Source: a virus. From it: a DNA stretch of 56,349 nucleotides. Of the stretch, positions 55,736 to 56,349 are shown one piece after another. The notes below the pieces were generated by a model, which saw only the letters and a program-made list of their open reading frames with translations, was not told the DNA's origin and made no database searches. The stretch's first letter is position 1; each line of letters starts with the position of its first letter. The translations under genes and the position numbers were made by a program. Location of the stretch: UHGV virus genome UHGV-0011358, one strand, 5' to 3'.

Positions 55736-55981
55736 ATGTATTACGTGCGCAAGGCTTTTGATATTCGCCTGAATAACAATGATCCGGCGCAAAAACTCAT
55801 CTTAATTGCACTGGCAACAAAGGCCGGATGCAACGGCAAAAGCGAAGTAACGCCAGAAGAGATCGCGGAAATGTGCGAAATTTCGTTACGCGATACTATC
55901 TCTGCACTGCATCAACTGAAAAGAAGCGGCCTAATCAGCCAGCTGCCAGGTTTCTTCTGCGTTTATCAGTTAATGTTTTAG
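55736..55981 (+). CDS. HTH protein, first rightward gene (Cro-position; paralog of next gene)
   Basis: 81 aa; GGAG RBS; paralogous to the N-terminus of the following ORF. Confidence 0.5.
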   Translation: MYYVRKAFDIRLNNNDPAQKLILIALATKAGCNGKSEVTPEEIAEMCEISLRDTISALHQLKRSGLISQLPGFFCVYQLMF

Positions 55982-55987
55982 TTCGTC

Positions 55988-56349
55988 ATGAGGTTAATGC
56001 TTATGAGTATGCGGCTAATGGTAGAGGTCTTCCATACTGAGGTCGGCGACCCAATGCACAAACTGGTGCTGTTGAAGTTAGCTGATAACGCTAATGATAA
56101 CGGAGAGTGTTATCCTTCTTACCATCACATAGCAAAGGAGTGTGAGATCAGCAAAAGAACAGCTATGAGGGCTGTAGACTCACTTTGTGAAAAAGGGTTG
56201 TTGATTAAACAACCAAGATACTTAATCGGAGGAAAAGAGCAAACTAGTAATTTCTATGTAATAGTCCTTCCGTCATTGCATGGTAGTGTCACTGTGACAC
56301 CGGGGGTAGTGTCACAGAGTCACTGGGGTAGTGTCACAGAGTCACTGGG
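55988..56349 (+). CDS. replication initiator-like HTH protein, N-terminal part (runs to window end)
   Basis: HTH domain followed by in-gene iterons; ORF reaches the window edge without a stop. Confidence 0.5.
   Translation, partial: MRLMLMSMRLMVEVFHTEVGDPMHKLVLLKLADNANDNGECYPSYHHIAKECEISKRTAMRAVDSLCEKGLLIKQPRYLIGGKEQTSNFYVIVLPSLHGSVTVTPGVVSQSHWGSVTESL
56282..56349. repeat. iteron array (three copies of a 22-23 bp repeat), candidate origin
   Basis: GGTAGTGTCACTGTGACACCGGG / GGTAGTGTCACAGAGTCACTGGG x2, truncated by the window end. Confidence 0.6.

Follow-up and report, generated by a model that had tools for sequence, protein, structure and literature searches.

How the lysis-lysogeny switch of a phage with a lambda-like CI can work without a Cro, and what role is played by a hypervariable, dispensable copy of an origin-binding domain in the position where cro would be expected, are the questions raised by the locus described here. 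Phages of the mEp021/mEp010 ("mEpimmI") group have been reported to be as frequent as lambdoid phages in human gut E. coli, and they carry a lambda-like CI repressor and an N-like antiterminator, yet no protein of theirs has been designated Cro. The defining paper of the group covers, in its available portions, the repressor, the antiterminator Gp17 and the nut sites; those portions of its text and supplements describe neither a Cro nor a function for gp14, the first gene divergent from cI, and mention neither initiator paralogy, nor allelic diversity, nor the absence of the small gene in some members (PMC11893012). In the GenBank records, the small gene is "hypothetical" or "putative HTH, similar to MarR" (mEp021/mEp010; MH706966, PP180001; PMC11893012). 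The genes themselves have GenBank entries and the phage group has been described in print; the new findings are that the gene in the cro slot is a stand-alone copy of the initiator N-terminal domain, that its allelic structure does not depend on any cis element nearby, and that the gene has been lost in nature.

The window and its two early operons

The window, that is, the whole 56,349-nt stretch of the virus genome UHGV-0011358, was placed by megablast in the mEpimmI group of temperate E. coli phages, and the DNA identity of mEp010 to it was 97.5% over 54700-56349. It is a circular permutation, and the cut falls inside the 22-bp iteron array of the initiator gene (56303-56349 joined to 1-10). 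In the alignment with mEp010, 14 nt (GGTAGTGTCACAGA) were absent at the window junction, and putting them back restored the initiator frame; this gap is probably a repeat that was collapsed or trimmed in assembly.

The CI-like repressor gene (HTH_3 + Peptidase_S24) occupies 54786-55432 on the minus strand and was recognized by Pfam matches on its two ORF pieces. Alignment with the intact 215-aa cI of mEp010 demonstrated that the window copy is split by a 1-nt deletion in a C run at ~55270-55272, which is either a sequencing error or the mark of a variant that is decaying or forms clear plaques. Over 50 homologs with an intact 215-aa CI were found, and the identity of CI within the group was 91-100%. 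Divergent from the repressor, the small gene and the initiator gene form cistrons 1 and 2 of the rightward early operon, in agreement with the first-pass annotation, which had put the pair at the head of this operon. The initiator is directly followed by a Rha + KilAC (antirepressor-type) gene (962-1735, plus strand), and then by an HNH endonuclease, a DnaB-like helicase, NinB, a 72-aa AlpA/Xis-like ORF (7737-7955, plus strand) and a 415-aa tyrosine integrase (7913-9160, minus strand), the start of which is overlapped by the AlpA/Xis-like ORF. The slot right after the initiator differed widely from one relative to the next (Rha, BRO, zinc-ribbon and other genes), and two integrase types, with at least 93% and ~50% identity to the integrase of the window, were reassorted without regard to the replication module. 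The N-like antiterminator Gp17, recombination genes, Q and the late genes belong to the other early operon, which lies downstream of cI.

The divergent control region contains no conserved small ORF

The stretch 55433-55735, which forms the divergent control region and the leader of the rightward early operon, was delimited from the ORF lists and from a conservation profile over 37 loci. From the repressor start at 55432 to the small gene at 55736 the gap measured 303 bp, matching the earlier estimate of about 300 bp. No conserved plus-strand ORF of at least 25 aa was found in it across 55 related loci, which bears out the earlier claim that no classical Cro is encoded there. The sole widely open frame was a 45-aa, TTG-started ORF on the minus strand (55509-55646), antisense to the nut site and open in 53 of the 55 loci; it was neither HTH-like nor protein-like and is most likely a by-product of nut conservation. 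The mEp010 and mEp515 records list genes similar to this antisense frame, and the gap ORFs that PHANOTATE had annotated in these records were rejected as not conserved or not protein-like. The description of the gap as non-coding is correct with regard to conserved protein ORFs, yet the gap holds a promoter/operator region and a published nut site.

A candidate CI operator (55466-55486) with the core AAAACGTGTTTT emerged from a repeat search. Its 12-bp motif at 55473-55484 recurs as its reverse complement, AAAACACGTTTT, within the other early promoter region (54716-54727), and this motif common to both regions is our candidate for the CI operator. Further ACGTTTT repeats at 54721-54748 are also candidate CI operators, while a guessed operator of the form TTGCA-N4-TGCAA was dropped, being unenriched in the window (46 matches vs 49 expected). 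A consensus scan returned a sigma-70 promoter-like site (TTGACC, 16-nt spacer, TAAACT) at 55492-55519 on the plus strand, identified solely by its 9/12 match to the consensus.

The nut-like site at 55596-55628 (plus strand) consists of a boxA-like element, GCTCTTTAAAAA, at 55596-55607 and a boxB-like hairpin, TCGCT-GCGA-AGCGA, at 55615-55628, the latter being present in the MFE fold. It corresponds in position to the nutL site published for mEp021 (PMC11893012). An inverted twin of its boxA (GCTCTTTAA) together with the spacer lies at 54572-54589 on the minus strand and is 94% complementary, and each of the two divergent early operons is headed by one of these two inverted nut-like sites. Over the whole region, no 60-nt stretch was better conserved than the right-hand site (divergence 0.007). 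Folding of the whole leader was no better than that of shuffled sequences (z = -0.41), and no credible Rfam match was obtained over 54400-56349.

The 81-aa protein is related to the N-terminal domain of the initiator

The first gene of the rightward operon (55736-55981, plus strand; ATG start, SD AGGAG at 55724-55728) encodes an 81-aa stand-alone winged-helix protein of the gp14 family (mEp021_14 / mEp010_17); mEp010_17 has the same sequence (100%), and mEp021_14 is 97.5% identical. We conclude that 55736-55981 is a real gene, because dN/dS between its alleles is 0.05-0.35, the winged-helix model is confident and a positional ortholog is present in 51 of 55 loci. N-terminal extensions of this ORF (95-122 aa in some loci) were rejected since their frame is not conserved. 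The AlphaFold model had a pLDDT of 89.9 and the topology H-H-b-H-H-b-b. With Foldseek, the model retrieved only generic winged-helix neighbours from the PDB (E>=4e-3); a PDB sequence search gave nothing at E<=10, and no NCBIfam match to the protein was found.

The first-pass annotation had proposed that the 81-aa protein and the product of the next ORF are tandem paralogs. Pairwise alignment by BLASTP supported this far beyond chance: over residues 15-74 of both proteins, 22 of 60 positions were identical (37%, ungapped, E=4e-11; 115 residues of the next ORF were available), and the Pfam and PHROG matches agree. With the 81-aa protein as query, tblastn hit two places each in mEp010, mEp013 and mEp044. 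Against Pfam HTH_36 (PF13730), the second ORF scored 57.2 bits and the 81-aa protein 20.4, which is under the cut-off of 25; precomputed PF13730 matches were present in 6 of 13 protein clusters of the B type described below, taken from the homolog search. The best Pfam matches of the 81-aa protein were the HTH_36, Crp-like and Rrf2 winged helices, and its PHROG matches were confined to replication-initiator families, of which it covered no more than the first ~70 positions (phrog_4617, E=2e-10). The common core that had been noted is partly exact: DPxxKLxLxxLA and CEISxR are found in both proteins, but only the small protein fits ExxExC exactly, the initiator reading IAKEC. The signature helix PxxKLxLxxLA of the small protein includes the invariant residues P17, Q19, K20, L21, L23, A25 and A27. 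The protein ends after the wing at residue 81, without the replisome-recruiting C-terminal domain, and has a pI of ~6-7.7.

Judged by these similarities, the ancestor of the 81-aa protein was the N-terminal, origin-binding domain of an O-type replication initiator. The MarR family, which is the GenBank/RefSeq label, was rejected: MarR proteins have ~140-150 aa, with dimerisation helices on either side of the winged helix, against 81 aa here, and there was no MarR or MarR_2 match at E<=0.1. No wider family exists, since phmmer found only 4 matches among 1.84 billion representatives. Among 50,697 phage records the stand-alone form was restricted to mEpimmI phages, the remaining tblastn matches being N-termini of replication proteins.

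The second gene encodes an O-like initiator that carries its own iterons

The initiator ORF starts at 56003, 21 nt after the small gene and behind an SD sequence GAGG at 55990-55993, and runs off the window end. Its 5' part (56003-56349, plus strand, 115 codons) encodes the HTH_36 N-terminal domain, as seen from the Pfam score and from the alignment with mEp010_16 and mEp021_13, and its 3' part lies at the other end of the window (1-626, plus strand, coding from 3 in frame 3, stop TGA at 624-626), where PHROG replication-initiator matches were obtained. What had been called a second HTH protein is indeed a paralog of the first, but it is more precisely the N-terminal origin-binding domain of an O-like initiator of ~330 aa, the gene of which is cut by the window end; the ORF corresponds to the 330-aa "replication protein O" of mEp021/mEp010-type phages.

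The origin lies inside the initiator gene (56280-56349, plus strand) and consists of one degenerate and two exact 22-bp repeats, GGGGTAGTGTCACAGAGTCACT, and one more copy is interrupted by the window junction; relatives contain 4-6 copies. Across 16 loci, helix 3 of the initiator covaried perfectly with the iterons, three variants matching three iteron classes, and this pair served as the positive control for the covariation logic applied below. The second ORF is an O-like iteron-binding replication initiator, given its alignment with the mEp010 and mEp021 proteins, the covariation of its helix 3 with the iterons, and the DnaB-like helicase encoded downstream.

An alternative initiator with a Lin1244/DUF4373-type N-terminal domain was observed in mEp515 (L003:4298-5353) and in 38 other loci. 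Lin1244-type initiators carry 11-bp GGTCATGA iterons, four of which lie at L003:4688-4728 in mEp515. The C-terminal domain is common to O-type and Lin1244-type initiators and is ~95% identical between them, amounting to a swap of N-terminal domain and origin within one gene. In E. coli strain 190 (L009:2857-3791) the initiator is split by a C-run frameshift, with 5 C against the 6 C of the window at ~70-75.

Two module types and natural loss of the small gene

Relatives were compared over 12 annotated and 47 IMG/VR loci anchored on the repressor, 55 of which were classifiable; these loci are phylogenetically non-independent. A small gene of type A (81 aa) followed by an O-type initiator was present in 13 of the 55 loci, and one of type B (84/85 aa) followed by a Lin1244-type initiator in 38; an O-type initiator without the small gene was seen in 3/55 and a Lin1244-type initiator without it in 1/55. 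Types A and B were 38% identical over their full length (E=2e-19) and nearer to each other than either was to the O N-terminal domain, whereas type B showed no similarity to its own Lin1244-type neighbour. In B-type modules, the final codons of the small gene contain the SD sequence of the initiator. The linkage of small-gene type to initiator N-domain type was perfect (13/13 and 38/38), which could follow from physical linkage alone. The sequence comparison indicates positional orthology of the small gene across the whole group, with two deep types, and shows that the term tandem paralogs fits the A+O configuration only: it is valid for the window, but in 38 of the 55 loci the small gene stands before a Lin1244-type initiator that it does not resemble.

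In four of the 55 loci, namely L012 (E. coli KKa019), L021, L025 and L052, the small gene was precisely absent. Both initiator backgrounds are represented among them, and the initiator start codon is there placed on the leader SD. In addition, a nonsense allele, L51* (TTA>TAA at codon 51, with the remaining codons intact), was found in a widespread prophage lineage (L108-L111:3001-3246). Because of this precise absence and the spread of L51*, the small gene appears to be dispensable in nature. Some L51* prophages have a disrupted initiator as well.

The variable half of the small gene does not covary with nearby DNA

The half of the small gene that encodes recognition helix 3 and the wing (55880-55981, plus strand) was hypervariable in protein alignments. 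At the DNA level, the 3' part of the gene, about half to two-thirds of it, formed a sharp island of diversity, with a mean pairwise divergence of 0.18-0.27 against 0.03-0.10 in the flanks. The low dN/dS between alleles, with dS saturated, shows purifying selection on the gene. The alleles of the variable half (A1, A2 and further variants; B1, B2 and B3) are old and have been recombined into conserved backgrounds. Recent capture of alleles from other initiators was rejected, since no close donors were found and the best full-length relative was only 37% identical.

A covariation screen was applied to the small gene over ~-10 to +8 kb around it. Allele A1 occurred alongside all three O/iteron classes and A2 with two, and the strongly different alleles B1-B3 all adjoined the same invariant GGTCATGA iterons. 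Mutual information between small-gene allele and the leader and operator (columns -3600 to +2200) had no peak outside the gene, and both integrase types occurred with A1 and with B2. A 12-mer association over the ~-10 to +8 kb found no allele-linked DNA beyond the gene's own cassette, only isolated SNPs. Allele-associated DNA was limited to rel 369-567, from the 3' part of the gene itself to the start of the initiator. Short repeats near the 3' end of the gene were not clearly above chance and in part reflect coding constraint.

Possible roles of the small protein

Considering its position, the small protein might be expected to act as Cro does. It resembles lambda Cro in being the first small DNA-binding-type protein encoded divergent from a CI/S24 repressor, in an operon that carries replication genes. 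However, its fold family differs, the nut site lies upstream of the small gene while that of lambda cro lies downstream, and, other than for lambda Cro, the recognition surface is hypervariable within a homoimmune group and the gene is dispensable in nature. Experimentally, Rep021 excludes phages of both small-gene types (PMC11893012). A classical operator-sharing Cro is excluded by the comparisons made here, though these are an indirect test, because Pfam gave no match of the small protein to a Cro/CI-type HTH (HTH_3, HTH_31, Cro) and the PHROG matches are all to replication initiators, because the recognition surface is the most variable part of the protein though CI and the leader are conserved, and because the leader contains no allele-linked DNA. 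Distant CI relatives (L057-L059) have a classical 72-aa HTH cro and lack the small paralog, and this distribution would suit a functional analogue of Cro, unrelated to the Cro/CI HTH, that binds the 303-bp region, shuts down cI and damps early transcription. Small winged-helix proteins not homologous to Cro, such as Cox and Apl, are known to substitute for it. The lambda cro position of the gene, the lack of another candidate ORF in the gap and the silence of the available group description about a Cro (PMC11893012) also favour this reading, yet we consider it unlikely, since CI and the leader are conserved but the recognition helix and wing, of which old alleles exist, are hypervariable, no position of the leader is allele-linked, and the gene is missing from some loci and carries a nonsense allele in a widespread lineage. 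A dual Cro-excisionase of the Cox/Apl type was rejected on the grounds that A1 and B2 are each found with both integrase types and that a separate AlpA/Xis-like ORF is present at 7737-7955.

The small protein shows homology to initiator N-terminal domains and to nothing else, and the iterons had been proposed for DNA-binding assays in the first-pass annotation. A replication-level dominant negative, which without the helicase-recruiting C-terminal domain would occupy the iterons or heterodimerise with the N-terminal domain of the initiator and so limit or time initiation, would be consistent with this homology, with the adjoining and co-transcribed initiator gene, and with the perfect tie of small-gene type to the type of initiator N-domain and iteron. 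An allele-specific match to the iterons is nevertheless unlikely, because A1 spans three iteron classes, A2 spans two and B1-B3 share GGTCATGA; the small-protein alleles do not follow iteron class, as the initiator helix 3 does, and B1-B3 differ strongly where the iterons are invariant. An iteron-matched competitor of the neighbouring initiator is for the same reasons an unlikely role. Moreover, type B is unlike its own Lin1244 N-terminal domain, and heterodimerisation via paralogy cannot be general. We therefore regard a dominant-negative role as very doubtful.

The alleles may instead face outwards. An accessory factor acting outside its own early region, on the origins of competing phages or satellites or on a host defence sensor, would fit the old, shuffled alleles in a sharply bounded island between conserved flanks, the dispensability of the gene, the lack of any covarying cis element within ~18 kb and the independence of the alleles from their own iterons. 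On the other hand, the CI-repressed promoter implies that the protein is absent in lysogens, where exclusion would be most useful, and close donor initiators are missing (4 matches among 1.84 billion representatives, the best full-length one 37% identical); such a factor seems quite unlikely. Its more specific form, in which gp14 would be an allelic series of origin-binding-domain decoys aimed at competing phage or satellite origins or initiators, or at a host sensor, and not at the DNA of the phage itself, strikes us as very improbable; if true, it would give a prevalent Cro-less family of gut coliphages another specificity system in addition to, and independent of, CI immunity. An activator of lysogeny resembling CII, which would switch on a promoter that lies close to its gene and directs leftward transcription into cI, has in its favour the place of this early gene between promoter and replication genes, as for lambda cII, and the fact that a site inside its own cassette would explain the lack of other covarying DNA. 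Non-homologous CII substitutes such as YdaT are also known. But many genomes are lysogenic for phages that lack the gene or bear the nonsense allele, the consensus scan detected no leftward promoter-like site within the gene, and integrase type does not depend on the allele, all of which makes this role highly unlikely. YdaT-like genes next to cI have been noted (PMC8951638). Lastly, the gene might be a relic without function, left by an initiator gene that was partly duplicated, given its absence or truncation in some lineages and the sub-threshold Pfam score of the window copy. This is hardly credible, being excluded by the selection signal (dN/dS as above, dS saturated), and the frame is intact in 51 of the 55 loci with a conserved SD and a confidently predicted fold.

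Plasmid Cop regulators (R1 CopB, pMV158 CopG, pIP501 CopR) are small, non-essential DNA-binding proteins encoded upstream of an initiator gene. Our preferred reading, tentative and itself less than probable, is by analogy with these that the small protein is a Cop-like, non-essential, trans-acting early modulator. As the product of the first cistron it would damp the expression or the action of the initiator operon, putatively by binding DNA through helix 3 and the wing. The putative target would lie inside its own variable cassette, between the 3' part of the gene and the initiator start, because this is the only cis location left by the covariation tests. The reading is suggested by this cassette-only cis target, the first-cistron position, the tight coupling to the initiator start and the tolerated loss of the gene. 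Against it stand the pI of ~6-7.7 and the purely generic winged-helix neighbours of the model. A small non-essential first cistron of an initiator operon whose loss is tolerated is what the two systems would have in common; in sequence and fold, the Cop regulators are not kin to the small protein (CopG is a ribbon-helix-helix protein), and the resemblance is one of presumed function only. If the small gene controls initiator dosage or hampers other replicons, it would represent a new type of phage regulatory cassette, and if its role is minor tuning only, it would be an ordinary gene duplication in a known phage.

Relation to known replication regions

The closest layout is that of mEp021 and mEp010, which have the same gene order and the same iteron-bearing initiator (mEp021_13 / mEp010_16) as the window. 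The N-terminal domains of O-like / HTH_36 initiators (SfV orf39, ST64B sb42, mEp460 and the "replication protein O" of Stx phages) share with the small protein ~37% identity over 70 aa, the PxxKLxLxxLA motif and the winged-helix fold; in those initiators, however, the domain is fused to a C-terminal domain and is iteron-matched, whereas the small protein stands alone and its alleles are not iteron-matched. In the "Eru" non-lambdoid replication regions of Stx phages, HTH_36 proteins are encoded directly next to cI (PMC8951638). There, as here, a CI/S24 repressor faces an operon that starts with HTH_36-type proteins, which is not the lambda layout, but the HTH_36 proteins of these regions are full replication-region proteins, and no stand-alone paralog upstream of the initiator has been described for them (PMC8951638).

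Another winged-helix ORF was seen in two of the loci from which the small gene is absent. A very basic 77-aa MarR-like winged-helix ORF (pI 10.4) lies downstream of the initiator in L012 (at 3665-3898) and in L021 (at rel 1429, counted from the start of cI). This basic ORF is confined to a lineage without the upstream small gene, and it may be a replacement for that gene or a coincidence.
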